Positions 21,191-41,308 of a DNA stretch of 64,000 bases are shown here, piece by piece. The stretch comes from Escherichia phage vB_EcoM_JNE01. The translations under genes were made by a program, and so were the position numbers. The stretch is from sequence record OR670491. One strand, given 5' to 3'. Under the pieces are notes generated by a model. The model did no database searches, was not told where the DNA came from, and saw only the letters and a program-made list of their open reading frames with translations. Position 1 is the stretch's first letter; each line of letters starts with the position of its first letter.

Positions 21191-21928
21191 GTAATCACAA
21201 GTACGCATATGTAATCATATATAAACATTTCCGTGAGAAGTTTTGAGTACTGTATAGTATTAAGAATCACCGTAGGAGCACAGAATGATTAAGAATGCAC
21301 GGGAATGATTCAGAATGATTCAGTACTGATATGTCACTAAGTAGGCAGAGGAAGTCTGCCGTACTTTTTAGTTTCCAAGCTCCTTTTCCATTTTTCAAAT
21401 TACATCAAATGCAATCAAAAGTAATCACGCAATGATTAGTACTGAATTATTACTTTCACCTTAATTTCAAATACCCGTTGACCCTTCGGGGTAAAATTCC
21501 ATTACCCCTTGAGGCTCCAGCAAAAAGTTGGTTAGTACTCCATCCTAAATCTCGATCCTAAAAATTTTGGAGTACCTATGAAATAAAAGTTGGATCTTCG
21601 AAAGTTGAAATTTACGTTGGGATGATTAGGATTTGTGAACTATAATGTAGTTCAAGTTGGAGTACAGAGTGAGAACAATCTAGAGTACTGAAAGATGAAA
21701 TAACATCTTGACAATACAATTCAGTACTGTATAATGTTGTACATAGGGTGAGGGAACGGCGGCAACTGTTCCTTAATCTCAGTATCATGTCGTGAGACAT
21801 TACGCAAGTTATATCCTCCTGTGCATAGTGCTGGTGGTTATCTCTTGAACCTCATTTTTTCTCGTGAACTAAACAGTACTGATATTAACAGAATGGTAGC
21901 AGTACTGATATTAATCTAATGCATTATG

Positions 21929-21948
21929 CCACCAGCTTGTGCTGGTGG
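21929..21948. repeat. perfect hairpin CCACCAGC-TTGT-GCTGGTGG (Chi octamer in both orientations)
   Basis: read directly; GCTGGTGG is the E. coli Chi sequence. Confidence 0.6.
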
Positions 21949-22162
21949 ATTCCCTCTAACAGTATTCAGTACTACATGATGGTCTTCATCCTCCTGGGGT
22001 AACATAGTGAAGGTTATGATGGCAGTACTGAATACTCCAAACTCAAGATGGATTAAGGGTGTAGTACTGACGGATTTTGGGTGTAGTTACCCTGGATGGA
22101 TTTTGGACGTAGATATGTCTAGCCCTCCAGAAGTCTGGAAGTAAAGATGGCTATCCATCTAG

Positions 22163-22238
22163 ACGGCTAAACGGCTAGATTTCTGGATGGCTGGACGTTT
22201 GGACGGCTAAACGGCTAAACGGCTAAACGGCTAAACGT
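22163..22238. repeat. tandem 8-mer ACGGCTAA (iteron-like) with GGATGG/GGACG satellites
   Basis: four perfect tandem copies at 22203-22234 plus two copies at 22163-22178. Confidence 0.6.
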
Positions 22239-22878
22239 CTGGATGTATGGATGGCTAAATCAAAATTTTATTTTGTTTTTTCCAATAGTTCCCCTACCGC
22301 GTGGGGATAGTTTCCCCGCAGTATCTGGTGTTAGATTTTTCTGAATCTGGAATCATTATCTTATAAACTGGGGGCAATGTCAACGGCCTGGACGGATATT
22401 TTTAAAAATTTTTTCAGTACTGAATTTTGGGCGTAACTATGCACCCGGTGGGCTTGAGTCTTTCTCGACTTGATGGAACTATTATACAGTACTGAAAAAA
22501 TAAAGCAATACCCTGGAAGCAAAAAAGTTTTAATTAATTTGCTTGCTATCCTGGGCCGGACTATGGTACTATATTTCAGTACTGAGAAAGTGCGTTTACC
22601 TGCTAGGGTGCGGGAGTGTATCCTTTTTTTATATCTTGAATTTTGGACGGATCTTCCCACCCCCTGGGGTATCCGCTTTCTCGCGTCTATGTAGTAATTA
22701 TACGCTTTTTCAGGATCAAGTCAATACCTAAAAACAAAATAATTGAAAATAATTTAACGCGTTTAAACGGCCCGTAACGCCCTGGAATGATTAGAATGGT
22801 GCAAATGTATAGCTTAGGTGTATTAATGCGTTAGAATGCGTCTGAGGCCGTTTTATGGGGTGTAGTAGTGATTTGGTT

Positions 22879-23045
22879 GATTCAGTACTGAATAATAGTA
22901 CTCCTATATAGAAAGATAGTTCCCCTGGATTGATTCAGTACTGAATGATAGTACTGAATAATAGTACTCCTATATAGAAAGATAGTTCCCCTGGATTGAT
23001 TCAGTACTGAATGATAGTACTGAATAATAGTTCCCCTATATAGAA
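22879..23045. repeat. direct repeat of a roughly 66-bp unit, about 2.7 copies
   Basis: unit GATTCAGTACTGAATGATAGTACTGAATAATAGTACTCCTATATAGAAAGATAGTTCCCCTGGATT; abuts first early promoter. Confidence 0.6.
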
Positions 23046-23077
23046 AGAAAACTATTTTAAAAGTATTTGTAGAAAGT

Positions 23078-23138
23078 ACTTGCACAGTACTGATAAAAGC
23101 GTATAATGTTTTACATCGAGAGCGGGAACTCTTCCCGC
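23078..23138 (+). promoter_or_regulatory. early-type promoter (TTGCAC-16-TATAAT, extended -10 TG) plus 5' stem-loop GCGGGAA-CTC-TTCCCGC
   Basis: consensus AGTACTTGCA...AGTACTG-TATAAT-GTTTTACATC then GC hairpin then SD. Confidence 0.55.
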
Positions 23139-23162
23139 TACACTTTAAGAGAGATTAATACG

Positions 23163-23525
23163 ATGGCGACTCAAATCACTAAAATCATTGCTAACCTGGT
23201 TAACTTCCGCGACGATATGAAAGATCTTCCGGCGGCAACGGTTAAAACTCACATTGACGCATACCGCGAACTGATTAAAATGCTGCCGCTTAAGCGTGAA
23301 CAATACGCCGCCACCGTGATGCTTGATGCGATGATCCATAAGATGATCGCCAGTGATTTAACGATGGCTTATCAGTATATGGGTGAATTGTTCGCGGTGT
23401 ATAGTAAACCAGTACCAGGAATGGAAAGTACAGAAGTATTACACGGTTTAAATTTAAAACAAGATGCATGGGATAATATGCCTCGTTTCCTGGTATGGGC
23501 TGACAGTGGCAAAATTTACGAATAA
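23163..23525 (+). CDS. hypothetical protein
   Basis: start moved to ATG at 23163 (MATQITKII) downstream of promoter hairpin; SD AAGAGAG. Confidence 0.6.
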   Translation: MATQITKIIANLVNFRDDMKDLPAATVKTHIDAYRELIKMLPLKREQYAATVMLDAMIHKMIASDLTMAYQYMGELFAVYSKPVPGMESTEVLHGLNLKQDAWDNMPRFLVWADSGKIYE

Positions 23526-23538
23526 GTTAAAAATTAGT

Positions 23539-23595
23539 TTGACAGTACTGAATAAAAGCGTATAATGTTTTACATCAGGTGGGGAATAGTTCCCC
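23539..23595 (+). promoter_or_regulatory. early-type promoter (TTGACA-16-TATAAT) plus 5' stem-loop GGGGAA-TAG-TTCCCC
   Basis: read directly. Confidence 0.55.
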
Positions 23596-23617
23596 ACTAT
23601 ATAAGAGGATTAAAAAA

Positions 23618-23857
23618 ATGGCTAAATCAAAAATGTTCTTAGGTCACAAAAATAAAACTCATTGGAATGTAAGCCTTTGGATTAATAACGATGAGGGATT
23701 GTATCGGTTGGCCCAGGACTTTATTAACGATAGCACTAATCGCAATGATGCGGCCCGTCATATGATGTTATTTTTAGAACAGACTGGACAAGATAAAACA
23801 CCGGACGGATTCAAATATAGCACTACTGCGATCCGTGCGGCAATGGTAGGAATGTAA
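23618..23857 (+). CDS. hypothetical small protein (paralog of 25659..25898)
   Basis: MAKSKMFLGHKNKTHWNVSLWINN...PDGFKYSTTAIRAAMVGM; SD AAGAGGA. Confidence 0.6.
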   Translation: MAKSKMFLGHKNKTHWNVSLWINNDEGLYRLAQDFINDSTNRNDAARHMMLFLEQTGQDKTPDGFKYSTTAIRAAMVGM

Positions 23858-23869
23858 TAGAATATATTT

Positions 23870-23906
23870 AAAGTACTATCATTTTTTTGCGATAGTACTT
23901 TATAAT
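23870..23906 (+). promoter_or_regulatory. dyad AAAGTACTATC-N10-GATAGTACTTT abutting TATAAT (operator-like)
   Basis: same dyad plus promoter upstream of the paralog at 36326-36364. Confidence 0.4.
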
Positions 23907-23943
23907 AGTGTTTTATTCATACACCAACGATAAGGGCAACAGC

Positions 23944-24210
23944 ATGAATATTAAGTATTTTGCGACGCGTGAACAAGCTCGGATCGCCGCTCGCCAGGAC
24001 GGGGCAACGTTTAAAGATATGGGCGTACAATCGGAACGTGGTAAACGTTGGGCCATTGTAAAGCGTAGTACCGCCAGATCATTACAGTACTGGTTAGCGG
24101 CCTTAAAAAGTCCCGATAGTGTATCGCGTCGAGTGGTAGAAATAAAGCTCGACCGAAAGGGCAACCGCGTGACCGTGTACCGTACTAAAAAGATAGCAGT
24201 ACTTGAATAA
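23944..24210 (+). CDS. hypothetical small protein (paralog of 36413..36808)
   Basis: MNIKYFATREQARIAARQDG...DRKGNRVTVYRTKK. Confidence 0.6.
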   Translation: MNIKYFATREQARIAARQDGATFKDMGVQSERGKRWAIVKRSTARSLQYWLAALKSPDSVSRRVVEIKLDRKGNRVTVYRTKKIAVLE

Positions 24211-24217
24211 AAAGTAC

Positions 24218-24276
24218 TTGCAAACTATGTTTAATGGCGTATAATGTTTTACATCGAGAGCGGGAACTCTTCCCGC
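24218..24276 (+). promoter_or_regulatory. early-type promoter (TTGCAA-16-TATAAT) plus 5' stem-loop GCGGGAA-CTC-TTCCCGC
   Basis: read directly. Confidence 0.55.
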
Positions 24277-24297
24277 CTATAACCTGGAGTAATAAAA

Positions 24298-24528
24298 ATG
24301 ACTAATATGTATATGACTGAAGTTAAAACCGTAAAAGATACTACCACGAATAAAACTACTTACTTACAGCGGATCTGCGGTGTATGGCAACGTATCAGCA
24401 AATCAAAGTACTTTAAATTAACATCATATGCAAATCGTTCGGATTCATTCAGTACTGAAATAAAAGGTAATAAAGTACACCAATACGGCACTTATTATTA
24501 TTACAGCCTGGACGCGATTGCAGTATAA
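24298..24528 (+). CDS. hypothetical small protein
   Basis: 76-aa ORF, SD GGAG. Confidence 0.6.
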   Translation: MTNMYMTEVKTVKDTTTNKTTYLQRICGVWQRISKSKYFKLTSYANRSDSFSTEIKGNKVHQYGTYYYYSLDAIAV

Positions 24529-24558
24529 GCAGTTTACAAATCTTTACAATTGCCGGTA

Positions 24559-24640
24559 TTGACTTATTTTGTCAGTACTGGCATAATGTATTCATTGGCA
24601 GATAAGCCGTAGCCCATAGGGTGCGGGAGTGTATCTATAG
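24559..24640 (+). promoter_or_regulatory. promoter (TTGACT/CATAAT) followed by conserved element AGCCCATAGGGTGCGGGAGTGTATCTAT
   Basis: seven copies of this element in the window, always downstream of a promoter. Confidence 0.45.
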
Positions 24641-24812
24641 AAAAATTAGTTTAGTATAGTTACAATTGTGCACCCGGTGGGTTAGCTGTTGTCATGGGGT
24701 ATATTATGCCAGTACTTGATAATTCTGTCAATACTTTTTTTTTACTATTCAGTACTGAAAACTATTTTTAAAAAGTACTTGCAAACTATGTTTAAAGGCG
24801 TATAATGTTTTA

Positions 24813-24895
24813 CATCAGGACGGGGAACGAAATAAGTAACTTCCCGTTAAGTAGCCCAGGAGTAAGGCACACGAAAAACTCCCCTGATAAAATAG
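24813..24895 (+). ncRNA. candidate structured leader / small RNA (about 80 nt)
   Basis: promoter-driven, no ORF, two hairpins; near-identical copy at 35214-35295. Confidence 0.3.
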
Positions 24896-24956
24896 TTTGA
24901 CAAATGTTTTTAAAAGCGTATAATACTTACATCAACTACTGAATGAGGGTTACAAA

Positions 24957-25568
24957 ATGAAAACTATCACTACTACTACTTTCGTTATGGATTTTTCTGA
25001 ATTGAACGCAGAACAACAAACGTCAGCTATCGAACTGGTTCGGGATCGTGAGCGTTCATGTGAGGATAATTTCTTTGCTGAGGGCGTTATCGAGTACTAT
25101 AAAGAAACAGTACTACCAGAATACGGCATAGATGAAGCTGAATTGCAATACAGTGGTTTTTGGTCGCAAGGTGACGGTGCATCAATCAGTACTGACAGCG
25201 TGGACGCAGTGAAGTTTTTACGCAAGATTAAAGCGTTAACGAAATATCGTTCTATCCGTCACTTGTTGAATGAAGATGATTTGGCAATGAGTGTAGAACG
25301 TTCACACTCTCGCTACGCACACGAAAACACGGTAAGCGGGTACATTGAATCGGCTTACACTGATTTAACCGCAAAACAAGAAACGTTAGTTAATGAGCTT
25401 GAGGAACTACTCACTGATACTATTCGTGAATTGTCCCGCAAGTTGTACCGTGATTTAGAGAATGCATATGAGGATCAATTCACTACTGAAAACATTACGG
25501 CACTGATTGAGGGTAACGAATATCAATTCAATGTTATTGATGGCGTAGTGGAATCAATCGAATATTAA
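24957..25568 (+). CDS. hypothetical protein
   Basis: 203-aa acidic ORF with its own promoter (TTGACA...TATAAT) and SD. Confidence 0.65.
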   Translation: MKTITTTTFVMDFSELNAEQQTSAIELVRDRERSCEDNFFAEGVIEYYKETVLPEYGIDEAELQYSGFWSQGDGASISTDSVDAVKFLRKIKALTKYRSIRHLLNEDDLAMSVERSHSRYAHENTVSGYIESAYTDLTAKQETLVNELEELLTDTIRELSRKLYRDLENAYEDQFTTENITALIEGNEYQFNVIDGVVESIEY

Positions 25569-25580
25569 TTTAAAAAGTAC

Positions 25581-25640
25581 TTGCAAACTAAGTTTAAAAG
25601 CGTATAATACTTTATATCGAGGCGGGGAGTGGTTCCCCGC
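25581..25640 (+). promoter_or_regulatory. early-type promoter plus 5' stem-loop GCGGGGA-GTGG-TTCCCCGC
   Basis: TTGCAA 25581-25586, TATAAT 25603-25608. Confidence 0.55.
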
Positions 25641-25658
25641 TCAAACGAGGATTTAAAA

Positions 25659-25898
25659 ATGGCTAGTACTAAAACTTACAACGGACACAAAAACAAAACT
25701 CATTGGAATGTAAGCCTTTGGATTAATAACGGTGAGTCATTGTATCGGCTTGCTCAAAGTTGCATCGCACAAAGTAGAACTAAAGATATTGCTGCGGAAT
25801 GTATGTACCGCAGATTAAAAGCCAACGGTACTACTACAACGCCGGACGGCTTTAAGTATAGCACTACTGCGATCCGTGCTGCAATGGTTGGAATGTAA
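25659..25898 (+). CDS. hypothetical small protein (paralog of 23618..23857)
   Basis: MASTKTYNGHKNKTHWNVSLWINN...PDGFKYSTTAIRAAMVGM. Confidence 0.6.
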   Translation: MASTKTYNGHKNKTHWNVSLWINNGESLYRLAQSCIAQSRTKDIAAECMYRRLKANGTTTTPDGFKYSTTAIRAAMVGM

Positions 25899-25955
25899 TA
25901 TTCAGTACTGAGATAATGGCGGGTAATAGTTCCCGCCTTTACTGAGGGTTATCTA

Positions 25956-26216
25956 ATGAGTAAAGTAATTAGCTATACAGCACTAAGCAAGACATTATCT
26001 ATTAGCCAGTGCACCGATGGTTATTGGCTATTTGATGAAACGCGTGGCATGAATTTAGCGATGCGTGCAAAAACTGCTGAGGCGGCGTATATTCAAGCAC
26101 TGGAATACTACCAGGAACGTTTAAAGGAAGTAGAAGAAGATTATAAAAGCCTCAAAGCGAAAGTAGATCATTTCGTCGGTCAATTCAACGAGGAAGACGA
26201 CGACAAACAATATTGA
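25956..26216 (+). CDS. hypothetical small protein
   Basis: 86-aa ORF preceded by hairpin GGCGGGTAATAGTTCCCGCC. Confidence 0.55.
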   Translation: MSKVISYTALSKTLSISQCTDGYWLFDETRGMNLAMRAKTAEAAYIQALEYYQERLKEVEEDYKSLKAKVDHFVGQFNEEDDDKQY

Positions 26217-26224
26217 AAAAGTAC

Positions 26225-26283
26225 TTGCAATTAGTTTTCAGTACTGTATAATGGTTTACATCAAAGGGAGAAATGGTTCTCCC
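26225..26283 (+). promoter_or_regulatory. early-type promoter plus 5' stem-loop GGGAGAA-ATGG-TTCTCCC
   Basis: TTGCAA 26225-26230, TATAAT 26247-26252. Confidence 0.55.
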
Positions 26284-26302
26284 TGGTAATGAGGAAAATA
26301 AA

Positions 26303-26524
26303 ATGGCTAATATCACTACTCTTTCCCAACTGGAAGCACTGGTGAAATCTATGCGGGAACATGCCGACAAAATCGGCGTACAAGATCCAGCCGTTTGCTT
26401 CTGCGACGAATTGAATGATGATACCCTGGTAATAGCAGAAGTCCAGGACGTTTCTAACTATTCCTCGCGTTACACTGGCGGCGTAGCAAATAAAGGCGAC
26501 TTCTGTTTATACCTTACAAAATAA
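26303..26524 (+). CDS. hypothetical small protein
   Basis: start moved to MANITTLSQ with SD GAGGAAA. Confidence 0.6.
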   Translation: MANITTLSQLEALVKSMREHADKIGVQDPAVCFCDELNDDTLVIAEVQDVSNYSSRYTGGVANKGDFCLYLTK

Positions 26525-26529
26525 CAACG

Positions 26530-26559
26530 CGGGGAGATAATAACTCCCCGTTACTTTTT
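26530..26559 (+). terminator. rho-independent terminator
   Basis: CGGGGAG-loop-CTCCCCG hairpin plus T-run. Confidence 0.6.
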
Positions 26560-26767
26560 CAGTACTGAATCATTTAATAGACGGATCTCGGCACCCGGTG
26601 GGTTAGTGACTGTTTCGTCTTGATGTAGTAATTATGCCAGTACTGGATGCACTTGTCAACAACTATTTTTCAAATACTTTTTATTAAAATACTTGCAATT
26701 AGTTTTTAAACGCGTATAATGTTTTGCATAGGGGGAGCGGTTCCCCTGGTAACTAAGGAATAATAAA

Positions 26768-27004
26768 ATGCTTGAACAAATCAAATCAACGTCTGCGAAT
26801 GTAACGGGAACGGTATCACACTTTACTAGTGATGAATCGCGTGGTGTTCCTTATTGTGCTGTACATGTAAACACTGATGGCAACTACTGGTTTACGGTTT
26901 ACGGATCATATTCATTTGGACGGCCAGGGCATCAAAAAATTCTGGATAAAGTACAACCAACGGGTAAAAATATCACTGCCGAAATGTTTTATAAAAAATC
27001 ATAA
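26768..27004 (+). CDS. hypothetical small protein
   Basis: 78-aa ORF with promoter, hairpin and SD upstream. Confidence 0.6.
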   Translation: MLEQIKSTSANVTGTVSHFTSDESRGVPYCAVHVNTDGNYWFTVYGSYSFGRPGHQKILDKVQPTGKNITAEMFYKKS

Positions 27005-27009
27005 AGTAC

Positions 27010-27068
27010 TTGCAATTAGTTTTTAGTACTGTATAATATTTTACATCGCAAGGGGAAACGGTTTCCCC
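27010..27068 (+). promoter_or_regulatory. early-type promoter plus 5' stem-loop GGGGAAA-CGG-TTTCCCC
   Basis: TTGCAA 27010-27015, TATAAT 27032-27037. Confidence 0.55.
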
Positions 27069-27088
27069 TGGTAACTAAGGATAATCAA

Positions 27089-27388
27089 ATGAAAGTTGCA
27101 ATCATCGCCCTGGCTTTATCTGTATCGTCTTTCGCTGTTAACGCTTCCGTTGATGTACCGCGTGAAAAATTCATTCAGTGCACTGTTGCAATGACTAACG
27201 AGGAAACGGCTGAGATTGTTACCAAATCCCTGGAACTGGCCCCTGCAATGTTTGCTAATGGCCCGTACCATGAAGAAGATGATCAGGGTAGCACGACCAT
27301 CTATTACGATGCAAAAAGTAAACGCGGTTCAGTTACTGTAATGGATACTGAGAAAGTTACATTCACGGGAGTAATTAATTGTTTTTAA
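27089..27388 (+). CDS. small secreted/periplasmic protein (Sec signal peptide)
   Basis: MKVAIIALALSVSSFAVNA/SVD: hydrophobic N-region with AxA cleavage motif. Confidence 0.65.
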   Translation: MKVAIIALALSVSSFAVNASVDVPREKFIQCTVAMTNEETAEIVTKSLELAPAMFANGPYHEEDDQGSTTIYYDAKSKRGSVTVMDTEKVTFTGVINCF

Positions 27389-27404
27389 TGAAGTACTGAA
27401 TCAT

Positions 27405-27434
27405 AAGCCCACTATAAGAAGTGGGCTTTTTTTA
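27405..27434 (+). terminator. rho-independent terminator
   Basis: AAGCCCACT-loop-AGTGGGCTT plus T-run. Confidence 0.65.
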
Positions 27435-27518
27435 TTGTAGTACTGAATACTTTAAAAATAGTTTTGAAATAGTAGTTGACATTACCAGGGAAAGGCGTAG
27501 AATGTATTACATCAGGAC

Positions 27519-27600
27519 GGGGAACACTAAGTAGACCGCCAGTAAGTCGAACGAAAAACTGGACACGACCTGGAAACTTTGATAAACTAACTTACACTTT
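27519..27600 (+). ncRNA. candidate structured 5' leader (diverged copy of the 80-nt element)
   Basis: begins CATCAGGACGGGGAAC like copies at 24813 and 35214. Confidence 0.25.
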
Positions 27601-27618
27601 AATTGAGGAATTAAAAAA

Positions 27619-28098
27619 ATGGCAAATGTAAAATCATTCTTTAAAGCACTGGTATCTTCTGACGTATCTATCGCCGCTGAATTGCTGGCTGACCTGGATA
27701 ATGATACCATGAAAGCAGTACGCAATAATTTTAATATGGCGTACAGTGCAGCAAAAGAACTGCAAGCCAAAAAGGTAGCAGAACTGGAAGCGGCAAAGGC
27801 AGAACGTGAAGCAGAACTGCAAGCAACAATCGAAAGCATCCAGGCGGCGGTAAGTGGATTGGATATCGAGATCGTAACCGATATGGCACATAAAGCCCTA
27901 GCTGCAAAATACGGTGAAGTAAAAGCGGTTAAAGAAAAGAAATGGATTCAGGACCGCGTTAACGTAGTACTTGACAACGGGGAAGAATATCTTATTCCTG
28001 TACGCGGTAACTGCATTGCCGTAGTACTGGACGCGATTAACTCCAGTGGTATGACACGCGAGGAATGGATCGAAGCTCATCGCAAAGTTGAAGCATAA
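27619..28098 (+). CDS. hypothetical protein with central coiled-coil-like segment
   Basis: 159 aa; AKKVAELEAAKAEREAELQATIESIQAAV. Confidence 0.65.
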   Translation: MANVKSFFKALVSSDVSIAAELLADLDNDTMKAVRNNFNMAYSAAKELQAKKVAELEAAKAEREAELQATIESIQAAVSGLDIEIVTDMAHKALAAKYGEVKAVKEKKWIQDRVNVVLDNGEEYLIPVRGNCIAVVLDAINSSGMTREEWIEAHRKVEA

Positions 28099-28119
28099 CA
28101 ATAAAAGTACTGAATCACT

Positions 28120-28147
28120 AGCCCACCTTAAACGGTGGGCTTTTTTG
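28120..28147 (+). terminator. rho-independent terminator
   Basis: AGCCCACC-TTAAAC-GGTGGGCT plus T-run. Confidence 0.65.
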
Positions 28148-28373
28148 TGTTTATCGTTTACCAGGCCACCAGCACCGCCTAGAAACGATTCTAACGCATT
28201 AAACTGATTATCTGATGCATTGCCCTAGCTGGTGGCGTTAAGGCTGTAAGAACGCGATTGAGAGCGTTTAAAGTATTTTGCAAAAAGTAATAAAAAGTAC
28301 TTGCACGATTAAGAGATTAGCGTATAATTAATTACATCAAGGCAAGACACCTTAACTAACTGAGGATATAAAG

Positions 28374-28526
28374 ATGAATACTTATGACCTGGATTGTTTT
28401 ACTTTACAAGTAATGTCAGTATGCAGTAAGAAAGATTGGTCATCAAAGGAATTTAAAGCAGTTATCGCGTGTGCAAAACACGGCAAGACTATCAATGAAA
28501 CGGCATCAATCATTGATAAACTTTAA
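28374..28526 (+). CDS. hypothetical small protein (50 aa, not in ORF track)
   Basis: hand-translated; promoter and SD GAGGA upstream. Confidence 0.45.
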   Translation: MNTYDLDCFTLQVMSVCSKKDWSSKEFKAVIACAKHGKTINETASIIDKL

Positions 28527-33989: not shown

Positions 33990-34016
33990 TATTAATTTAA
34001 TAGAGGATAACAATAA

Positions 34017-34340
34017 ATGTACATTCATACTACTATCACAAAGGAAGTCCGTTGCCAGTTCGAAAGTATTCCGGGCGTATGTTTCATCACTGGTACGTTT
34101 TCCCCTGGTGATCGTGATAATCCAGTACTGTTACAATTACGCCATCCATCATGGGATAAAGCATTTGATCTACCGTTGAATGAATTCGCAACTACTGCTG
34201 AAAAGTACATTAAAAATATTCGCGAGAATGATCGACTATTCATTAATGCTTTTAGTGATGCCGCGTTAAGTGAGATCCATGCTGTATTGGTTGCAATCAT
34301 GGAATCAATGGAGAAAACTATATTCAAACAAGGTGAATAA
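34017..34340 (+). CDS. hypothetical protein
   Basis: 107-aa ORF, SD GAGGA. Confidence 0.55.
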   Translation: MYIHTTITKEVRCQFESIPGVCFITGTFSPGDRDNPVLLQLRHPSWDKAFDLPLNEFATTAEKYIKNIRENDRLFINAFSDAALSEIHAVLVAIMESMEKTIFKQGE

Positions 34341-34423
34341 AAACTATTGACAATGCAATCCAGTACTGTATAATAGTTTACATGAAGGAGAGAAATGATT
34401 CTCCCCACTAAGAGGAAAGAAAA

Positions 34424-34636
34424 ATGCAAGGTCAACTAATCGTTCGTAAATGGTCTGATACTAACGAAAAACCGTGGGATGTACAATACATCGCCCCAAA
34501 TGGTGAATCCAGATATCAACCAGGTGTAACGCATAGTACTGAGCAATTCGCCGCCGCTCATCGCGAACGTCTGTTACAATCAATGCAGCAAGGTTCCGGT
34601 GAAAAATTCATTCAGGATCATTGGCTGAAAGATTAA
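34424..34636 (+). CDS. hypothetical small protein
   Basis: 70-aa ORF with promoter, hairpin and SD. Confidence 0.6.
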   Translation: MQGQLIVRKWSDTNEKPWDVQYIAPNGESRYQPGVTHSTEQFAAAHRERLLQSMQQGSGEKFIQDHWLKD

Positions 34637-34722
34637 AAAGTACTTGCACAGTACTGAATAAAGTGTATAATGTTTTATATCGGAAGGGGAATAGTTCCCC
34701 TCCGAACAAAGAGGAAAGTATA

Positions 34723-34896
34723 ATGGTCCAGGTAGAATTAACAGTACTGAAAGATCTGTTTTATCGGATTGGTACTACTGGCGAATATCCGAAGGGTGAT
34801 AATGCAAAACTTTACGTATCACTCGACTTATGGCAACGCGAACAATTAGCAACGGCCTGGCGTAAAGGCAAAGCAGATAGCGAGGTGAAAGCATGA
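34723..34896 (+). CDS. hypothetical small protein
   Basis: start moved to MVQVELTVLK downstream of promoter hairpin; SD AGAGGAAA. Confidence 0.5.
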   Translation: MVQVELTVLKDLFYRIGTTGEYPKGDNAKLYVSLDLWQREQLATAWRKGKADSEVKA

Positions 34897-35042
34897 AAGA
34901 ATTCTTATTTGAAGTAGTGTTTCAAGGTGTCGGTAATAACCAACTGATTCGATCAAGTGGTTATAATGTTAACCAGGCATGGAATAACATTAAACAAATG
35001 TACCCGAACGCTATCACATATCGCAACCCGAAAGAAGTTTAA
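34893..35042 (+). CDS. hypothetical small protein (49 aa, not in ORF track)
   Basis: ATGA overlap; hand-translated. Confidence 0.4.
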   Translation: MKEFLFEVVFQGVGNNQLIRSSGYNVNQAWNNIKQMYPNAITYRNPKEV

Positions 35043-35060
35043 AAATAATTGAAAAAGGGA

Positions 35061-35136
35061 TTGACTCCGGTCAGTCCCTTTGTTATTATATACGCATAGA
35101 AACAAATTAGCCCACCGGGTGCATAAATGTATCTAT
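35061..35136 (+). promoter_or_regulatory. terminator/promoter hairpin GGGATTGACTCCGGTCAGTCCC plus conserved element AGCCCACCGGGTGCATAAATGTATCTAT
   Basis: near-identical copies at 38336 and 41086. Confidence 0.45.
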
Positions 35137-35213
35137 TGTTTGCTGGTGGCTAGTACTGAAAACTATTTTTAAAAAGTACTTGCATTGTACTTAGAATCAA
35201 GTATAATGTTTTA

Positions 35214-35295
35214 CATCAGGACGGGGAACGAAATAAGTAACCCCGTTAAGTAGTCCAGGAGTAAGACATACGAAAAACTCCCCTGATAAAATAGT
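35214..35295 (+). ncRNA. candidate structured leader / small RNA (about 80 nt)
   Basis: second copy of the 24813-24895 element; differences preserve hairpin pairing. Confidence 0.3.
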
Positions 35296-35356
35296 TTGAC
35301 AATAGAAAGTAAACGAGTATAATACTTACATCAACCACTGATAAGGAAACATAAAA

Positions 35357-35632
35357 ATGCGGATTCTACTGACAGCTAACGAAATCGAACAAGTACTGAC
35401 TACTAATCTGGAACAATGGAAACGTGAAGCAGATATCCAGGCGGTTCAATGCCTTAACGATAAGTTAACGCCAGATGACTTAAGCACGATTGTTGATCCA
35501 CAATTTTATGAAGATATTCACGACACGTCTTTAAGCGTCGAGGATGTACTTGATAAGCACTACATTGATACTGATTTACATGTTTACGGTCGTAAAAACT
35601 TTATCACTATTCACGACATTTACAATACTTAA
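35357..35632 (+). CDS. hypothetical protein
   Basis: 91-aa ORF with third promoter and SD. Confidence 0.6.
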   Translation: MRILLTANEIEQVLTTNLEQWKREADIQAVQCLNDKLTPDDLSTIVDPQFYEDIHDTSLSVEDVLDKHYIDTDLHVYGRKNFITIHDIYNT

Positions 35633-35718
35633 GTATTGACAAAGTATCTTAGTACTGTATAATAGTTTACATCAAGGGGGGGAATGGTTCCCCTCCTAAC
35701 TAAAAGAGAGAAATAAAA

Positions 35719-35901
35719 ATGGCTAAGTGCACTATCTGTAATAAAGAAATAGTATTAGTTCCAAGTGCCCGTGAACGTGCCGCTCGGTTCGGTGGCAAAG
35801 CGTCAGACTATACAAAAATGTTTACTACCCATACAGCTTGCCAGGTAGCAAAACGTTCACAAGAAAGCGTAGAATTAATGCGTAAACTTTCCAAAAAATA
35901 A
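35719..35901 (+). CDS. hypothetical small protein
   Basis: 60-aa ORF with promoter, hairpin and SD. Confidence 0.55.
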   Translation: MAKCTICNKEIVLVPSARERAARFGGKASDYTKMFTTHTACQVAKRSQESVELMRKLSKK

Positions 35902-35989
35902 GTATTGACAAAGTATCTTAGTACTGTATAATAGTTTACATCAAGGGGGGGGGAATGGTTCCCCTCCTAACAAAGAGAGAGAAATAAAA

Positions 35990-36313
35990 ATGGCTATGAT
36001 CCTTACCCAGAAAGTAGAACTGAAAATTGTAACCTCCTTTGACATTAAAGTTAATCGGTGGACTGATAGCCACGGCAATACTTACCACTCCTGCTACGTG
36101 TCCGCATTGATTGGTGATCGCTGGGAAGACCTGGGACACGAAACCTTTACATACGGTTACGGCACACAAGGCGAGTACACGGGTTTAGAAATCATTAAGG
36201 AAACTGTAATAGGTTTCAACCCGAAAGAGAAAGTACTACACAGAATTGAGAAAGAGATCAACAAAGAAATTACAGTTCGCTACTACGATGTAAAACGTAA
36301 GAAAGACATGTAA
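35990..36313 (+). CDS. hypothetical protein (paralog of 29141..29464)
   Basis: shared RWTD.HGNTYHSCYVS and C-terminal KRKKDM. Confidence 0.6.
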   Translation: MAMILTQKVELKIVTSFDIKVNRWTDSHGNTYHSCYVSALIGDRWEDLGHETFTYGYGTQGEYTGLEIIKETVIGFNPKEKVLHRIEKEINKEITVRYYDVKRKKDM

Positions 36314-36325
36314 TAGAATCCATTT

Positions 36326-36364
36326 AAAGTACTATTTGACATTGCCCAGATAGTACTTTATAAT
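36326..36364 (+). promoter_or_regulatory. dyad AAAGTACTAT-N-ATAGTACTTT enclosing TTGACA, abutting TATAAT (operator-like)
   Basis: TTGACA 36337-36342, TATAAT 36359-36364; dyad arms on both sides of -35. Confidence 0.45.
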
Positions 36365-36412
36365 AGACTCTAACTTGTAGTACTAATTAACTTAACTAAT
36401 AGGATGTACACC

Positions 36413-36808
36413 ATGATTACTAAATTCTTCGCTACCCGTGAACAAGCTCGCATCGTTGCCCGTGAGGAAGGTGAAACATTTAAAGACATGGGTAAAGATT
36501 CTCCTACTGGTAAACGCTGGGCGGTACAGTTCAAAGAGATCTCTGATATTGTGAATTCACCTGAGCCTGTACTTACAGCAGCAGAACTAAAGCAAGCTCA
36601 AGAACTGGCTGAAGTACTGAACGCTCAAGATGACTTCTTGAAAGGTTCTGATATTGAAGTTACAGTTAACGCAAATGCATGGACTCACGCGGATCACCTG
36701 GCAAACCTTAAGCGTCCAAGTGAACTGATTCGTAACCAGAAAGAGATCCGTCATGACCGTAAAGGAAACCGTGTTACCGTATACAGTAAACGCCGCCAGG
36801 TTATCTAA
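36413..36808 (+). CDS. hypothetical protein (paralog of 23944..24210 with insertion)
   Basis: FATREQARIVAREEGETFKDMG...HDRKGNRVTVYSKRR. Confidence 0.6.
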   Translation: MITKFFATREQARIVAREEGETFKDMGKDSPTGKRWAVQFKEISDIVNSPEPVLTAAELKQAQELAEVLNAQDDFLKGSDIEVTVNANAWTHADHLANLKRPSELIRNQKEIRHDRKGNRVTVYSKRRQVI

Positions 36809-36831
36809 TACCTTGCAGTACTAACCAACAC

Positions 36832-36859
36832 GGCGGGAAGACAGTTCCCGCCTTTTTTA
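36832..36859 (+). terminator. rho-independent terminator
   Basis: GGCGGGAA-GACAG-TTCCCGCC plus TTTTTT. Confidence 0.65.
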
Positions 36860-36872
36860 TAGGACAAACAAA

Positions 36873-37127
36873 ATGATTAAGGTTCAACTATATAAAGATA
36901 ACATCTTACGGGTACACTATAAAGCACCTCAGAGAATCATCACAAAGGCCGTACAGCTTGCTAATGAGTTTATTAATGGTAACCTATTACCTAGGAAGTT
37001 AAGCAACGGGAAACTGCGTGTAATCGACGTGGACACTAACAACAGGATAGTAATCGAGAACACAGGAAAGATAAACCTTTATGAGCATCAACAATACAAT
37101 AAGAAAATAAAACTAATATCACGTTGA
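36873..37127 (+). CDS. hypothetical small protein
   Basis: 84-aa ORF. Confidence 0.55.
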   Translation: MIKVQLYKDNILRVHYKAPQRIITKAVQLANEFINGNLLPRKLSNGKLRVIDVDTNNRIVIENTGKINLYEHQQYNKKIKLISR

Positions 37128-37180
37128 CAGTACTCAATTGTTTTAGTACTATGTACACATACCAACACGGGAGAAACAAA

Positions 37181-37399
37181 ATGAAATTATCTAAAATCGA
37201 AAAGAAAACTATTGATGAAGCAGTTAAGCACGGTTATACCTTTCGTAATGATTCACATTTTACCAATTTTCAACAAGGGTATCGTACTATTAAAAAACTA
37301 ATTGACAAAGGTTTATTAGTTGAAGTCAATAACGGTAACGGTATCGAGTATCAACCAACACAGGACGCATTTTATTTTAAGAAATATAATATTATCTAA
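37181..37399 (+). CDS. hypothetical small protein
   Basis: start moved to MKLSKIEKK; promoter TTGACA...TACTAT and SD GGGAGAAA. Confidence 0.55.
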   Translation: MKLSKIEKKTIDEAVKHGYTFRNDSHFTNFQQGYRTIKKLIDKGLLVEVNNGNGIEYQPTQDAFYFKKYNII

Positions 37400-37457
37400 T
37401 TGACAGTACTCAAATGTTTTAGTACTATATGTACATACCAACACGGGGGGAAACAAA

Positions 37458-37700
37458 ATGATTACTTTAGAAAAACGTATCAAAGAAACTACATCGCTGG
37501 TGGAACTGTTAACAGTACTCAAATGTAAAACAGCACCATTCAGCACGCCGGACTTTATTAATATGGTTGATGTTAATGGTCGCTATCGTATCACGGTCGA
37601 ACAAGGAGCGGCGAAAGTATTCAGTACTAAAAACACGAAGGAAGTGATCCACGCCGTTAATGTTAAAAAAGTAGTTGCCATTGATAGTAAAGTACTGTAA
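37458..37700 (+). CDS. hypothetical small protein
   Basis: 80-aa ORF; promoter nearly identical to that of 37181. Confidence 0.55.
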   Translation: MITLEKRIKETTSLVELLTVLKCKTAPFSTPDFINMVDVNGRYRITVEQGAAKVFSTKNTKEVIHAVNVKKVVAIDSKVL

Positions 37701-37731
37701 TATAGTTTCATTAACTCAAGGAGATCATGCA

Positions 37732-38316
37732 ATGCGTAATTATACAAAATTCATCCGTACACTGTCAGAAATGGAAACCAACAAAGAGATCCTTTCAGCT
37801 TGTCGGTTAGCTGACCTGGAGATCATCGGTGCTGGTTCTTCCCGTATAGTTTTCGCTTTAAATGATCGGTTAGTGATTAAGGTCGCGAATTGTGATGCGG
37901 GTGTAGAACAAAATGAAACTGAATGTAAGGTATGGAATTTTTTAGACTATGACCGCCCTCAGTTGAAACAGTACTTTGCAAAGGTGCATATGCATTTATG
38001 CGATCCTGATAATATGTTTATCGTTATGGATCGGTTGAGTACTGCAAGCAAAGGCAGTGTGAAGCACGTAAACGCGTGCAATGAATTAAAGTACAATATT
38101 AAACGTAATGCAATCGAACGCCAGCACCGCTTTGCTGATGCACTACAACACGTTGATGATACATTATCAACACTAACGATAAGAGATATCAGAAAACAGA
38201 ATATCGGCCAGGATCGTAATGGACTTATTAAAGTACTTGATTACGGTTTAACCAGCAATATCTGGAATCAGTACTATAAAAAGCGTGATGTGGCAGCAAG
38301 TAAGGTAACACGATAA
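37732..38316 (+). CDS. protein-kinase-like protein (candidate phage Ser/Thr kinase)
   Basis: start moved to MRNYTKF; Gly-loop IGAGSSRIVF, VIKV lysine, catalytic-loop-like IRDIRKQNIG, DFG-like LDYGLT. Confidence 0.55.
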   Translation: MRNYTKFIRTLSEMETNKEILSACRLADLEIIGAGSSRIVFALNDRLVIKVANCDAGVEQNETECKVWNFLDYDRPQLKQYFAKVHMHLCDPDNMFIVMDRLSTASKGSVKHVNACNELKYNIKRNAIERQHRFADALQHVDDTLSTLTIRDIRKQNIGQDRNGLIKVLDYGLTSNIWNQYYKKRDVAASKVTR

Positions 38317-38335
38317 AAAAGATTAAAAAAAGGGA

Positions 38336-38416
38336 TTGACTCCGGTCAGTCCCTTTGCTATTATATATCCATTGAGAGATAACTCACTGACCCATAGGGT
38401 GCGGAAGTGTATCTAT
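38336..38416 (+). promoter_or_regulatory. terminator/promoter hairpin plus conserved element GACCCATAGGGTGCGGAAGTGTATCTAT
   Basis: copy of the module at 35061 and 41086. Confidence 0.45.
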
Positions 38417-38538
38417 TATATAAGTATTCAGTACTGAAAACTATTTTTAAAAAAGTACTTGCATTGTACTTAGAATCAAGTATAATGTTTTATATCGAGA
38501 GGGGGAAATGGTTCTCCCTGGCAATAAGGAATAAAATC

Positions 38539-38760
38539 ATGACTACAATGACTTGCATTTACGCTTCCAATCGTCTGAATGATGCGGCCTTTAATGTTGA
38601 TTCAGAATATCAATGTTATCGGGATGAAAATAAAAAAGTTTTTGTAGTTGATAATAATGGTTTCCATATTGAATTACAATCCGGCTTCACTGGTGTTGAT
38701 GGTAAATCAGTATGGGGCGTACAGGATGATAAAGGCACATATCATTTTAAACGTAATTAA
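38539..38760 (+). CDS. hypothetical small protein
   Basis: start moved to MTTMTCIYAS downstream of promoter hairpin. Confidence 0.55.
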   Translation: MTTMTCIYASNRLNDAAFNVDSEYQCYRDENKKVFVVDNNGFHIELQSGFTGVDGKSVWGVQDDKGTYHFKRN

Positions 38761-38843
38761 GTATTGACAAAGTATATCAGTACTGTATAATAGTTTACAT
38801 CAAGGGGAGAATAGTTCTCCCCGATACTAAAAGGAATAAAATC

Positions 38844-39248
38844 ATGACTACTACTAATCTTGCTCGGAATATCGCCAACGATAAAAATCATGCTGCAATG
38901 GTTGTTGGTTACATTGAAGCTATGCAATTCAGTACTGTACACAATGAGAACGGCGATTACCTGGAAGATTATGAATTATCAGAGCAAGCCCATCAAGCGG
39001 CAGTGATTGCATGTTCTCGCTTCATTGAGAAACACGGTAATGATCTGGAAGTAGTTCGCGGTATGTTTATTGATTACGGTTATGAGCAAGCTGGTCATGA
39101 TCTGTTCCTTACCCGCGAAGGTCACGGAACTGGTTTTTGGGATCGTGGTTTAGGTCACTATGGCGATGTATTCACGAAGTACTGCGAAGAAATCAACGTT
39201 TGCGATCCCTATGTAGGCGATGATAATCTAATCTATATGGGCGAATAA
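38844..39248 (+). CDS. hypothetical protein
   Basis: 134-aa ORF with promoter, hairpin and SD. Confidence 0.65.
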   Translation: MTTTNLARNIANDKNHAAMVVGYIEAMQFSTVHNENGDYLEDYELSEQAHQAAVIACSRFIEKHGNDLEVVRGMFIDYGYEQAGHDLFLTREGHGTGFWDRGLGHYGDVFTKYCEEINVCDPYVGDDNLIYMGE

Positions 39249-39335
39249 AAGTATTTGACAAAGTATATCAGTACTGTATAATAGTTTACATCAAGGGGAG
39301 AATAGTTCTCCCCGATACTAAAAGGAAACAAAATT

Positions 39336-39608
39336 ATGTCCAGCTACTCCGCTACTATGATCATTAAAGATATGAACGGTAATCCTACTTCTGCTGGTGG
39401 ATCATTTGGAAACATTAATTTAGATGGTCGGTTATCCATGCAATCAGCAATCGATGCAGCGAAAGAAGTTTTTAAGAATGAATGTACTGTTAGTAAGCTG
39501 GATTATATGGGATTTGCTATCGAAAAAACTAATCGTTTTGTGGACTACAAAAAACCACTGATGATTGATACTAACCTGAAAGCAAACGAAGTGGAGTACT
39601 TATTATGA
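39336..39608 (+). CDS. hypothetical small protein
   Basis: 90-aa ORF; promoter identical to that of 38844. Confidence 0.6.
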   Translation: MSSYSATMIIKDMNGNPTSAGGSFGNINLDGRLSMQSAIDAAKEVFKNECTVSKLDYMGFAIEKTNRFVDYKKPLMIDTNLKANEVEYLL

Positions 39609-39796
39609 CAGTTGAAGAAGTTAAAAAAGTACTGGCAGTACTACGCTATCATAATCATTGTAAGGTGAAGAATGATCCTGATTATCTTGATTCATCCCTG
39701 GAAGAGGATACACTACAAGCAATAAGCCATATGCAAACATTAGCAAAGCGTATGACCGAAAAGAATAGACCGGACTATATCGGAAATAAAATTTAA
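39605..39796 (+). CDS. hypothetical small protein
   Basis: ATGA overlap with previous gene. Confidence 0.55.
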   Translation: MTVEEVKKVLAVLRYHNHCKVKNDPDYLDSSLEEDTLQAISHMQTLAKRMTEKNRPDYIGNKI

Positions 39797-39882
39797 AAAG
39801 TACTTGCATTGTAGTTAGATTAACGTATAATGTTTTACATAGAGCGGGGGAATAGTTCTCCCGCCAGTCCAGGAGATACACC

Positions 39883-40146
39883 ATGAACACTATCGAAATC
39901 ACTATCAATGCACACGTATACGACAACGTAATCATGCAAACTACTATGACCGCTAATGATACCAGTACTTTGCGGAATACTGTTATTAGTGCTGTATGTG
40001 CCGCTATCGGTGATGTCGCCCTGGAAAATGCAAAACACGTAAACGATGGTTTCACTATGTGCAAACGTGATAACGCAAAACATATCATCGTGGAAGGTTA
40101 CGGCGGTGTAGAATTTAATGTTTATATGAAAAAAGTACTTGCATAA
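39883..40146 (+). CDS. hypothetical small protein
   Basis: 87-aa ORF with promoter, hairpin and SD. Confidence 0.6.
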   Translation: MNTIEITINAHVYDNVIMQTTMTANDTSTLRNTVISAVCAAIGDVALENAKHVNDGFTMCKRDNAKHIIVEGYGGVEFNVYMKKVLA

Positions 40147-40213
40147 TAACTAAAACAAAGTATAATGTTTTGCATAGGGGGAGATATCCTCCCCCACTAA
40201 AAGGAGTAATAAA

Positions 40214-40438
40214 ATGGCTAACTTTGATGAACTGATGCGGGAAGTAGCTAACCTGGCAGAAGAGAAGAAATCATTCGATTCTATCTATAACACCGCTCAC
40301 CGTGATTCAGTACTGGCATGTAACCAGGATCAAAAAGATGAACTAATCGCCACCTATCATGAAGCATGGAAGTACTACCGACAATGGGAGAAAGAAGAAA
40401 GTGAGTCTACCATTGACGGCCTCAATAATCTAATCTAA
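40214..40438 (+). CDS. hypothetical small acidic protein
   Basis: 74-aa ORF with promoter, hairpin and SD. Confidence 0.6.
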   Translation: MANFDELMREVANLAEEKKSFDSIYNTAHRDSVLACNQDQKDELIATYHEAWKYYRQWEKEESESTIDGLNNLI

Positions 40439-40514
40439 AAGTTTTATTTCAGTACTATTGACATAGCTTGATAGTACTGATGTAATAACTTTACTAACTA
40501 CAAGGGGAAACATA

Positions 40515-40772
40515 ATGGATCAGTTCACACAATATCGGGTAAATCATCAAGCTATGGCCTACGTAGAAGACCATAAAACGTTACCAGTACTGCAACCAGT
40601 TAAAGGCCATATCTATCGTGCAATGTCGTGGTGTACGGCCCAGGATGGCTATAAAACCGTAGCCGTTGGTATGTATTGCGGTAATGGTGAATGGTTTGAT
40701 CCAAATAATCCGGTAGCCATTGACAGTACTGAAAAAATGAAATGGGCCGACTACATCGAAGATATTTCATAA
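40515..40772 (+). CDS. hypothetical small protein
   Basis: 85-aa ORF with promoter. Confidence 0.6.
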   Translation: MDQFTQYRVNHQAMAYVEDHKTLPVLQPVKGHIYRAMSWCTAQDGYKTVAVGMYCGNGEWFDPNNPVAIDSTEKMKWADYIEDIS

Positions 40773-40861
40773 AAACTATTTGACAGTACTAACCAGTAAT
40801 GTATAATGTTTTACATAGAGCGGGGAATAGTTCTCCCGCCAATAGTTTGGAGTAAAACATT

Positions 40862-41062
40862 ATGTCTATCGCTATCGCCCTGGTTGAAGTACTGAAAGAA
40901 GCTAAAGCCAACCAGATCGACGTAAAGATCCAGGAACTACAAAACGGCTTAATCGGCTGTACTTGTACCGCTGGTGGAGCGGCAGACTATCGAGAACACG
41001 AATCACTCGAATCACTGGTTCGGTATCTTACCATGATCGTTGATGATTGGAGAATCATCTAA
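40862..41062 (+). CDS. hypothetical small protein
   Basis: 66-aa ORF with promoter and hairpin; contains in-frame Chi octamer. Confidence 0.55.
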   Translation: MSIAIALVEVLKEAKANQIDVKIQELQNGLIGCTCTAGGAADYREHESLESLVRYLTMIVDDWRII

Positions 41063-41085
41063 CAAAAAAAGAATAAAAAAAGGGA

Positions 41086-41159
41086 TTGACTCCGGTCAGT
41101 CCCTTTGCTATTATATACGCATAGACAAAAACTAGCCCACAGGGTGCATAGGTGTATCC
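41086..41159 (+). promoter_or_regulatory. terminator/promoter hairpin plus conserved element AGCCCACAGGGTGCATAGGTGTATCC
   Basis: copy of the module at 35061 and 38336. Confidence 0.45.
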
Positions 41160-41308
41160 AAAATATATAGTTAATAACGGTGAGTAACTATCTGCTGGTG
41201 GAACTAAAACTATTAATAAAAAAGTATTGACAAAGTATATCAGTACTGCAATAATGTATCTCGTAGGGCGGCAATGGTGCGACGGCCCACAAAGTTAGGA
41301 GATTCAAA

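Follow-up and report, generated by a model that had tools for sequence, protein, structure and literature searches.

Chi sites occur across the whole chromosome of Escherichia coli and other Enterobacterales, at about one per 4.5 to 5 kb, and are polarized with replication. Phage P1 is likewise rich in Chi, for which Sternberg and Hoess (1983) are reportedly the source. In P1 and its Chi-rich relatives P7 and D6, recombination of the terminal repeats by RecBCD and RecA has been proposed (PMC12315714; bioRxiv 10.1101/2021.07.08.451572), and in LLS-type lambdoid phages, which are without a recombination module, Chi is abundant toward one end, a pattern read as recruitment of RecBCD for concatemer formation (PMC12315714). 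The sequence recognized by E. coli RecBCD is GCTGGTGG (PMC5041463). Here we describe an array of this octamer in a 64,000-nt window of Escherichia phage vB_EcoM_JNE01 (sequence record OR670491; “the window” is the whole stretch analyzed, and all coordinates refer to it). Thirteen copies lie in a 21.2-kb segment equivalent to the direct terminal repeat mapped in the closely related E. coli phage fEgEco12. They are probably true Chi sites of the host, built up by selection in the terminal repeat, where they would limit RecBCD damage and prime recombination between the repeat copies.

As in P1, the host Chi word is in strong excess and gathers within or close to the terminally redundant part of a genome packaged as linear DNA. 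P1, however, is packaged by the headful from pac with 5 to 10 kb of sequence-variable redundancy, whereas the phage described here would have an exact repeat of ∼21 kb with fixed ends. The 50 Chi of P1 extend over tens of kilobases, 31 on the top strand and the others on the bottom strand, whereas the present array stops at the repeat borders; growth of the temperate P1 requires RecA and RecBCD, whereas vB_EcoM_JNE01 is a virulent myovirus of 350 kb with a close relative in which recombination genes are annotated. LLS-type phages also have abundant Chi skewed toward a DNA end, but have cohesive ends, no long repeat and no recombination module. Chromosomal Chi shares the octamer, the enzyme and the orientation dependence, and differs in its genome-wide spread; here the density is ∼1 per 1.6 kb, restricted to 6% of the genome. 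The kind of system is already known from P1 and the LLS-type phages; the present case differs in its occurrence in a virulent phage that would have an exact repeat with fixed ends and whose close relative is annotated with recombination genes. A literature search uncovered no earlier account of Chi-laden repeats in RaK2-like or other jumbo phages, in Kayvirus phage K or in SPO1, although most subscription journals lay outside the search and an earlier mention is possible.

Exact counting gave 13 copies of GCTGGTGG in the 64 kb, 11 on the plus strand and two on the minus strand, spanning 21830–41201 (Table 1). An earlier note on this DNA had reported clustered Chi far above expectation, and counting against a shuffled null bears this out: 100 dinucleotide-preserving shuffles of the window held a mean of 0.61 copies and a maximum of three. 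Its list of twelve sites was right with two exceptions: the copy at 37496 had been missed, and that at 28166 had been placed at 28167. Markov models of orders 1 to 4 fitted to the repeat predicted 0.16–0.44 copies on the plus strand and 0.04–0.10 on the minus strand; under the order-3 model of the 21.2-kb segment (0.40 and 0.10, respectively), the 11 plus copies were highly significant (P = 7 × 10−13). When every 8-mer of the segment was ranked without preselection, Chi came 14th, and the words above it mostly look like pieces of regulatory modules (the palindrome CAGTACTG, TGTATAATG-type −10 boxes and AGTACTTGCA-type −35 boxes). One-mismatch neighbors of Chi were not enriched, all 24 combined occurring twice on the plus strand of the segment. 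Eight of the 13 copies were non-coding (outside window open reading frames [ORFs] that match genes annotated in fEgEco12), compared with ∼30% of the segment (P = 0.02; ∼70% of the fEgEco12 repeat is annotated as coding). The view that several copies lie in hairpins or terminator loops rather than in coding sequence was correct for the hairpins at 21929/21941, 28166/28228 and 32434; five of the 13 copies are coding, four of them reading as Ala-Gly-Gly.

Several candidate carriers and sources of the octamer were rejected. Degenerate Chi-like words do not constitute the enriched signal, as near-variants were not enriched in the repeat. A longer dispersed repeat, or a promoter or terminator module, was excluded as the carrier by a mean pairwise flank identity of 0.27 (three copies do lie in hairpins), and host-derived DNA was excluded as the source, since megablast of the repeat against 5,426 complete E. 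coli genomes gave no match. Together, the unenriched neighbors, the unrelated flanks, the non-coding excess and the lack of an E. coli match place the signal on the exact DNA word, and not on peptides, repeats or acquired host DNA.

The window shares 92–97% identity with members of the genus Asteriusvirus, jumbo myophages of E. coli that include fEgEco12, vB_Ec-M-J, G17, 121Q and PBECO4, and the close relatives were all isolated on E. coli, in agreement with the enterobacterial host proposed in the earlier note. The direct terminal repeat of fEgEco12 was established as 20,993 bp by PhageTerm and restriction digests, and that of vB_Ec-M-J is listed as 21,525 bp in the same paper, which nowhere mentions RecBCD or Chi (PMC13070987). 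For G17, a terminal redundancy of ∼20 kb was reported from read coverage (PMC6563267). In the fEgEco12 record, the left-end genes g01–g056 recur at the right end as g615–g670; the ends of its repeat map to window positions 21340 (left) and 42555 (right), the vB_Ec-M-J repeat maps to 21341–42562, and the G17 and WPEC3 records start at window position ∼42562. Both terminus sequences are present in the window, 21,216 bp apart, with the spacing found in the mapped relatives, and the right-terminus motif also occurs in EC22.5-2 and 121Q. Given the conserved termini and the mapped relatives, the window appears to be a collapsed or concatemer-junction representation, in which unique sequence (1–21339) would be followed by one repeat copy and then by unique sequence again (42556–64000). 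A small hairpin exactly at the predicted left terminus could belong to the terminase recognition or cutting site. All 13 Chi lie between 21340 and 42555, and the 42.8 kb on either side contain no copy. In gene orientation and in the sign of its GC skew the right flank matches the repeat, yet it is without Chi, and we take the cluster to start and stop where it does because the segment is a direct terminal repeat, a connection that the earlier note had not made.

Table 1. Terminal repeat, terminus-equivalents and Chi sites in the window, followed by the terminal repeats of three distant phages with their reported hosts (repeat length in place of position, Chi per strand in place of strand).
Feature	Position	Strand	Remarks
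Direct-terminal-repeat equivalent	21340–42555 (21,216 bp)		From end-to-end alignment with the fEgEco12 repeat; holds all 13 Chi
Left terminus-equivalent AGTAGGCAGAGGAAGTCTGCC	21340–21360	+	Identical to fEgEco12 bases 1–21; also in EC22.5-2 and 121Q
Small hairpin GGCAGAGGAAGTCTGCC	21344–21360	+	Exactly at the predicted left terminus; kept in fEgEco12, EC22.5-2 and 121Q
Right terminus-equivalent GGGATTGGACTATG ... GGGTAACCT	42507–42555	+	Aligns with the final bases of the fEgEco12 record and with the terminal part of the left copy of its repeat
Chi	21830–21837	+	Non-coding leader of the repeat; gained in this lineage and not present in fEgEco12, EC22.5-2 or 121Q
Chi	21929–21936	−	Faces left terminus, 589 nt away; left arm of perfect inverted pair
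Chi	21941–21948	+	Right arm of CCACCAGC-ttgt-GCTGGTGG; 8-bp stem, dG (folding free energy) −9.8, z −3.7
Chi	28166–28173	−	Non-coding, directly after an intrinsic terminator; 6,826 nt from left terminus, facing left
Chi	28228–28235	+	Non-coding; inverted partner of 28166
Chi	32434–32441	+	3′ arm of terminator-like hairpin between genes
Chi	32944–32951	+	Within 48-codon ORF, GCT-GGT-GG (Ala-Gly-Gly); lost in 121Q
Chi	33894–33901	+	Within 62-codon ORF, Ala-Gly-Gly
Chi	35142–35149	+	Non-coding, between terminator/promoter module and next promoter
Chi	37496–37503	+	Within small ORF, read CTG-GTG
Chi	39393–39400	+	Within 90-codon ORF, Ala-Gly-Gly
Chi	40970–40977	+	Within 66-codon ORF, Ala-Gly-Gly; absent from 121Q
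Chi	41194–41201	+	Non-coding; first Chi for RecBCD from right terminus, 1,354 nt from the end
fENko-Kae01 (Klebsiella aerogenes) repeat	19,736 bp	12+/2−	14 Chi; 2 in next 30 kb
Muenster (Klebsiella pneumoniae, Alcyoneusvirus) repeat	20,030 bp	7+/1−	8 Chi; 0 in next 25 kb
XbC2 (Xanthomonas vesicatoria) repeat	17,581 bp	7+/2−	9 Chi; 3 in next 32 kb

RecBCD recognizes 5′-GCTGGTGG-3′ only when it arrives from the 3′ side, so plus copies would be active for entry at the right end and minus copies for entry at the left. In the window, the plus copies face the right terminus-equivalent at 42555, and the minus copies face the left terminus-equivalent at 21340 and lie near it; both ends have correctly oriented Chi (first-site distances in Table 1), and the copy at 21941 is the last active one for RecBCD arriving from the right. 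The earlier note had set the oriented copies against RecBCD entering from the right-hand side, and the right edge at ∼42555 indeed matches a physical end in fEgEco12, vB_Ec-M-J and G17/WPEC3. It had also seen the two minus copies, but missed that they face the left end and are enriched as strongly as the plus copies. This was evident when orientation was pooled over three genera with defined repeats (the window, fENko-Kae01 and Muenster): 30 plus and five minus copies, against order-3 expectations of 1.43 and 0.23, correspond to ∼21-fold enrichment on each strand, and the minus copies alone were significant (P = 4 × 10−6). The 11:2 strand bias in the window is real, but it does not exceed what the G-rich coding strand would give with equal enrichment of the two orientations. 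Co-orientation was rejected as separate evidence of selection, the pooled 30:5 ratio being the compositional expectation (P = 0.81).

In the same pooled set, minus copies lie in the left third (mean fractional position of 0.21) and plus copies skew to the right (0.59; permutation P = 0.006). The shared architecture comprises a back-to-back minus/plus pair ∼0.5 kb from the left end, a second minus copy ∼7 kb in, and a string of plus copies reaching to 0.4–1.7 kb from the right end (four phages). Each minus Chi in the window pairs with a nearby plus Chi as an inverted repeat. The minus copy at 21929 is conserved in fEgEco12, EC22.5-2 and 121Q, and its inverted pair has an equivalent in fENko-Kae01 at 484/496; the copy at 28166, which pairs with 28228 across 54 nt, is mutated in 121Q. 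fENko-Kae01 also has a hairpin (..CCACTGGTTAACGCTGGTGG..) built similarly to that at window position 32434. Searching viral contigs for CCACCAGC-N4-GCTGGTGG, the inverted pair, returned 46 contigs, mostly unrelated in appearance and with a single apparent relative, and was uninformative.

Concentration of Chi in the repeat was found in fEgEco12, EC22.5-2, 121Q, fENko-Kae01, Muenster and XbC2. In the complete EC22.5-2 genome (351,992 bp), the repeat-equivalent (29754–51028; 21.3 kb) holds 11 Chi against 0.43 expected, and the other 330.7 kb hold 17 against 8.6 expected (binomial P = 3 × 10−7 for concentration in the repeat); every other repeat-sized interval has four or fewer. In 121Q, 10 Chi lie between the two terminus motifs, and 26 kb of flanking sequence is free of them. 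Of the 13 sites in the window, 12 are shared with fEgEco12, at least 11 with EC22.5-2 and nine with 121Q, which is without the other four and has one of its own; the nine intact octamers in 121Q exceed the 5.3 predicted from local divergence (P = 0.026). Sites are thus gained and lost among relatives, with the total staying at 10–14 per repeat. To the left of the repeat, an array of RCC1-like (“chromosome condensation regulator”) paralogues carries several minus-strand Chi 255–258 nt apart in relatives (fEgEco12 31324–35129; EC22.5-2 record 9277–9790), taken to be a by-product of the repeated protein motif; the window's own equivalent region (1–21339) is without Chi.

The more distant RaK2-like jumbo phages were located via the protein kinase gene inside the repeat, and their repeats were defined by PhageTerm (Table 1). 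The fENko-Kae01 repeat is essentially unalignable with that of the window (4.2 of 21.2 kb in high-scoring segment pairs, mostly short promoter/terminator modules), so that its Chi must have arisen largely independently; several of them sit in −35/−10 promoter spacers, where the sequence is otherwise free to vary. At least four genera have kept the Chi array as a feature. Phage XbC2, with nine enteric Chi in its repeat (1–17581), has ∼36–42% G+C.

Different words serve as Chi in other hosts: GAAGCGG for AddAB, the end-processing enzyme of Staphylococcus aureus, and AGCGG in Bacillus subtilis. Staphylococcus phage K (Herelleviridae) has 20 copies of GAAGCGG (13 plus, seven minus) in its 8,486-bp repeat, where ∼0.4 would be expected. 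The adjoining 51.5 kb contain no copy, and GCTGGTGG does not occur in the first 60 kb of the genome; as a reciprocal control, the window repeat has one GAAGCGG against 1.3 expected. Inverted Chi pairs in phage K (4595/4615 and 6235/6246) resemble those of the window. In Bacillus phage SPO1, whose terminal redundancy we take to be 13,185 bp (in its record, the first gene marked as lying beyond the redundancy is at 13,504), AGCGG/CCGCT is the top over-represented 5-mer of the repeat (46 against 12.1 expected, P = 1 × 10−13), at 3.5 per kb compared with 1.2 per kb in the next 26.8 kb (first 40 kb of the genome). Phage K and SPO1 each lack the other's word. The link to host RecBCD drawn in the earlier note is strengthened by these two phages, each of which concentrates its own host's word in its terminal repeat, and such host tracking argues for a role with the host end-processing enzyme and not for a phage-specific motif. 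Phage K and SPO1 (with its host-takeover module) resemble vB_EcoM_JNE01, as does T5 (with its first-step-transfer DNA), in having exact multi-kilobase end repeats with small early genes and strong host-polymerase promoters; all three belong to unrelated lineages with unrelated genes, and phage K and SPO1 are also Chi-loaded whereas T5 is not. The pre-early genes at the left end of T5 (left repeat 1–10219) are transcribed toward the terminus.

How the array might act follows from the geometry. Host RecBCD would load on the free ends of the injected linear genome. Moving left from the right end, it would encounter up to 11 oriented Chi, beginning 1.35 kb in; entry at the left end would bring it to two, at 0.59 and 6.8 kb. 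Recognition of Chi would switch RecBCD from degradation to loading of RecA on the 3′ tail, and the DNA lost before the switch would lie in the repeat and be redundant, since the other end holds a copy. The RecA-coated tail, homologous to the repeat at the other end or to sister genomes, could then lead to circles or concatemers and to recombination-primed replication. Acting in cis and needing no phage protein, the array would be active before phage gene expression. If per-site recognition of Chi is 20–40%, 11 Chi would give a 91–99.6% chance of a switch inside the repeat and two Chi a chance of 36–64%; the model predicts a better protected right end. Access of RecBCD to these ends in vivo is inferred, as is a benefit from protection of the ends together with recombination between repeats.

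Several observations weigh against this interpretation. The termini of vB_EcoM_JNE01 itself are placed by homology to mapped relatives, and a role of RecBCD at the array in this phage group is suggested by sequence comparison. With two active Chi, the left end would be weakly protected at ∼30% recognition per site. The ends may be shielded by protein, or RecBCD may be inhibited by an early protein of unassigned function. fEgEco12, a relative at ∼95% identity, is annotated with RecA/UvsX-like, UvsY-like, gp46/47-like and gp32 proteins, and with recombination proteins of its own it should not depend on RecBCD for recombination as P1 does. The lack of an own recombination module that characterizes Chi-enriching phages (PMC12315714) does not extend to fEgEco12 as annotated, and a rule of “no Rec module, high Chi” therefore does not fit vB_EcoM_JNE01. 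The 10.2-kb repeat of T5 is not Chi-enriched (two copies, at 8127 and 8689, both plus), so the strategy is not universal among coliphages with long repeats. Finally, XbC2 was reported on Xanthomonas, a host whose Chi word is not known, and carries the enteric word; either Xanthomonas RecBCD reads GCTGGTGG or this lineage recently left enteric hosts.

It is possible, although unlikely, that the main benefit is evasion of immunity, with terminal Chi stopping degradation within ∼1 kb and shrinking the zone from which spacers are captured in CRISPR adaptation. Degradation of free phage ends by RecBCD or AddAB yields the fragments used in such adaptation and by some other nuclease-based defenses. 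Spacer-acquisition hotspots start at free ends, need RecBCD or AddAB and are bounded by Chi, the array lies exactly at the ends, with its first active Chi 0.4–1.7 kb from the right terminus in four phages, and spacers against Thermus phage phiFa derive mainly from its long terminal repeat (PMC8860600). However, many E. coli, Klebsiella and S. aureus strains are without active CRISPR adaptation, yet the array is kept in all lineages examined; one or two Chi per end would also suffice to bound a hotspot, and a repeat-wide array better fits a switch within homology. Such evasion is compatible with end protection and repeat recombination. The same compatibility applies to a second, quite improbable explanation, in which the array is a sink where each Chi encounter temporarily inactivates or disassembles RecBCD, titrating the few molecules per cell and sparing intermediates of later replication and packaging elsewhere in the genome. 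That RecBCD is inactivated once it has met Chi is well established biochemically, 11 sites make recognition near-certain (0.91–0.996), and the lack of any need for a phage protein would fit an immediate-early role. A sink would nonetheless work anywhere downstream of an end, leaving the minus copies near the left end unexplained, and one infecting genome offers only two ends.

We consider it very doubtful that the octamer is unrelated to RecBCD and represents the binding site of another phage or host protein, a signal in the transcript, or a side effect of base composition or codon choice in the early region. Its copies point the same way as early transcription, the coding ones mostly encode the same tripeptide, and the G+C content of the segment is above that of the flanks (38.5% versus 34.6%), but no Markov model through order 4 predicts more than 0.44 copies, and neither the unenriched neighbors, the unrelated flanks nor the eight non-coding copies fit such an origin. 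The word is the host Chi in four enteric-type lineages with unalignable repeats, and the enrichment in phage K and SPO1 of their own hosts' Chi would be unexpected for a phage-specific protein site. A use of Chi in replication-fork repair, leading-strand oriented away from an origin near 21.9 kb, is highly improbable: GC skew changes sign at ∼22 kb (cumulative minimum at ∼21.9 kb) with plus Chi to its right, as on the chromosome, but plus-strand genes and positive skew run to 64 kb with no Chi past 41201, no mirror-image set of minus Chi lies left of 21.3 kb, and whole-genome enrichment is confined to the repeat in EC22.5-2.

Besides Chi, the repeat contains co-oriented small plus-strand genes with individual sigma-70-type promoters and terminators, plus the conserved protein kinase, which is kept inside the repeat across genera. 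Fourteen promoters match the sigma-70 consensus perfectly (12/12; TTGACA, 16–17 nt, TATAAT; plus strand, 21708–40807) and ∼30 in the repeat are near-perfect, an unusually dense arrangement of roughly one promoter per small gene; by analogy with T5 and SPO1, the repeat would be transcribed early by host polymerase. The palindrome CAGTACTG is its most over-represented 8-mer (41 against 4.6 expected; 59 in the whole window), and AGTACT often adjoins the −35 box (AGTACTTGCA). CAGTACTG is also the top 8-mer of the XbC2 repeat (28 copies) and probably serves as a regulatory site that the early regions of RaK2-like phages have conserved. A composite module, AAAGGGATTGACTCCGGTCAGTCCCTTT, is repeated at 35054–35081, 38329–38356 and 41079–41106, with a variant at 31036–31063; its hairpin with a 12-bp stem contains the TTGACT −35 box of the next promoter, giving a terminator/promoter overlap. 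Tightly packed runs of ORFs of ∼60–75 codons flank the repeat (19956–21022, and from 42644 onwards). They look like small paralogous gene families, and the matching regions in relatives are annotated as long series of small hypothetical genes. A scan of the 64-kb window for transfer RNA genes found none.

Survival of a linear genome in the face of RecBCD is also achieved by proteins, as in end-capping by T4 gp2 and in lambda Gam. T7 gp5.9 and P22 Abc2 are further answers to the same problem (PMC9836394). Protein strategies act in trans and must first be injected or synthesized, whereas the Chi array is a DNA signal that would redirect RecBCD in cis. It is an even call whether Chi loading of long exact repeats is a general convergent strategy of large virulent phages, seen in RaK2-like phages with GCTGGTGG, in Kayvirus with GAAGCGG and in SPO1 with AGCGG. 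If it is, the terminal repeat would be a sacrificial, self-repairing buffer against RecBCD or AddAB, and the physical ends of such genomes would be predictable from sequence, as a Chi cluster could locate them in collapsed assemblies. Chi words are not known for most bacteria (PMC8022716), and Yersinia is reported to be without a Chi signal; the terminal repeats of phages could reveal the words used by their bacteria. For the giant phages under development for therapy, the array would represent a DNA-encoded counter to the main end-degrading enzyme of the host that operates without a phage protein.

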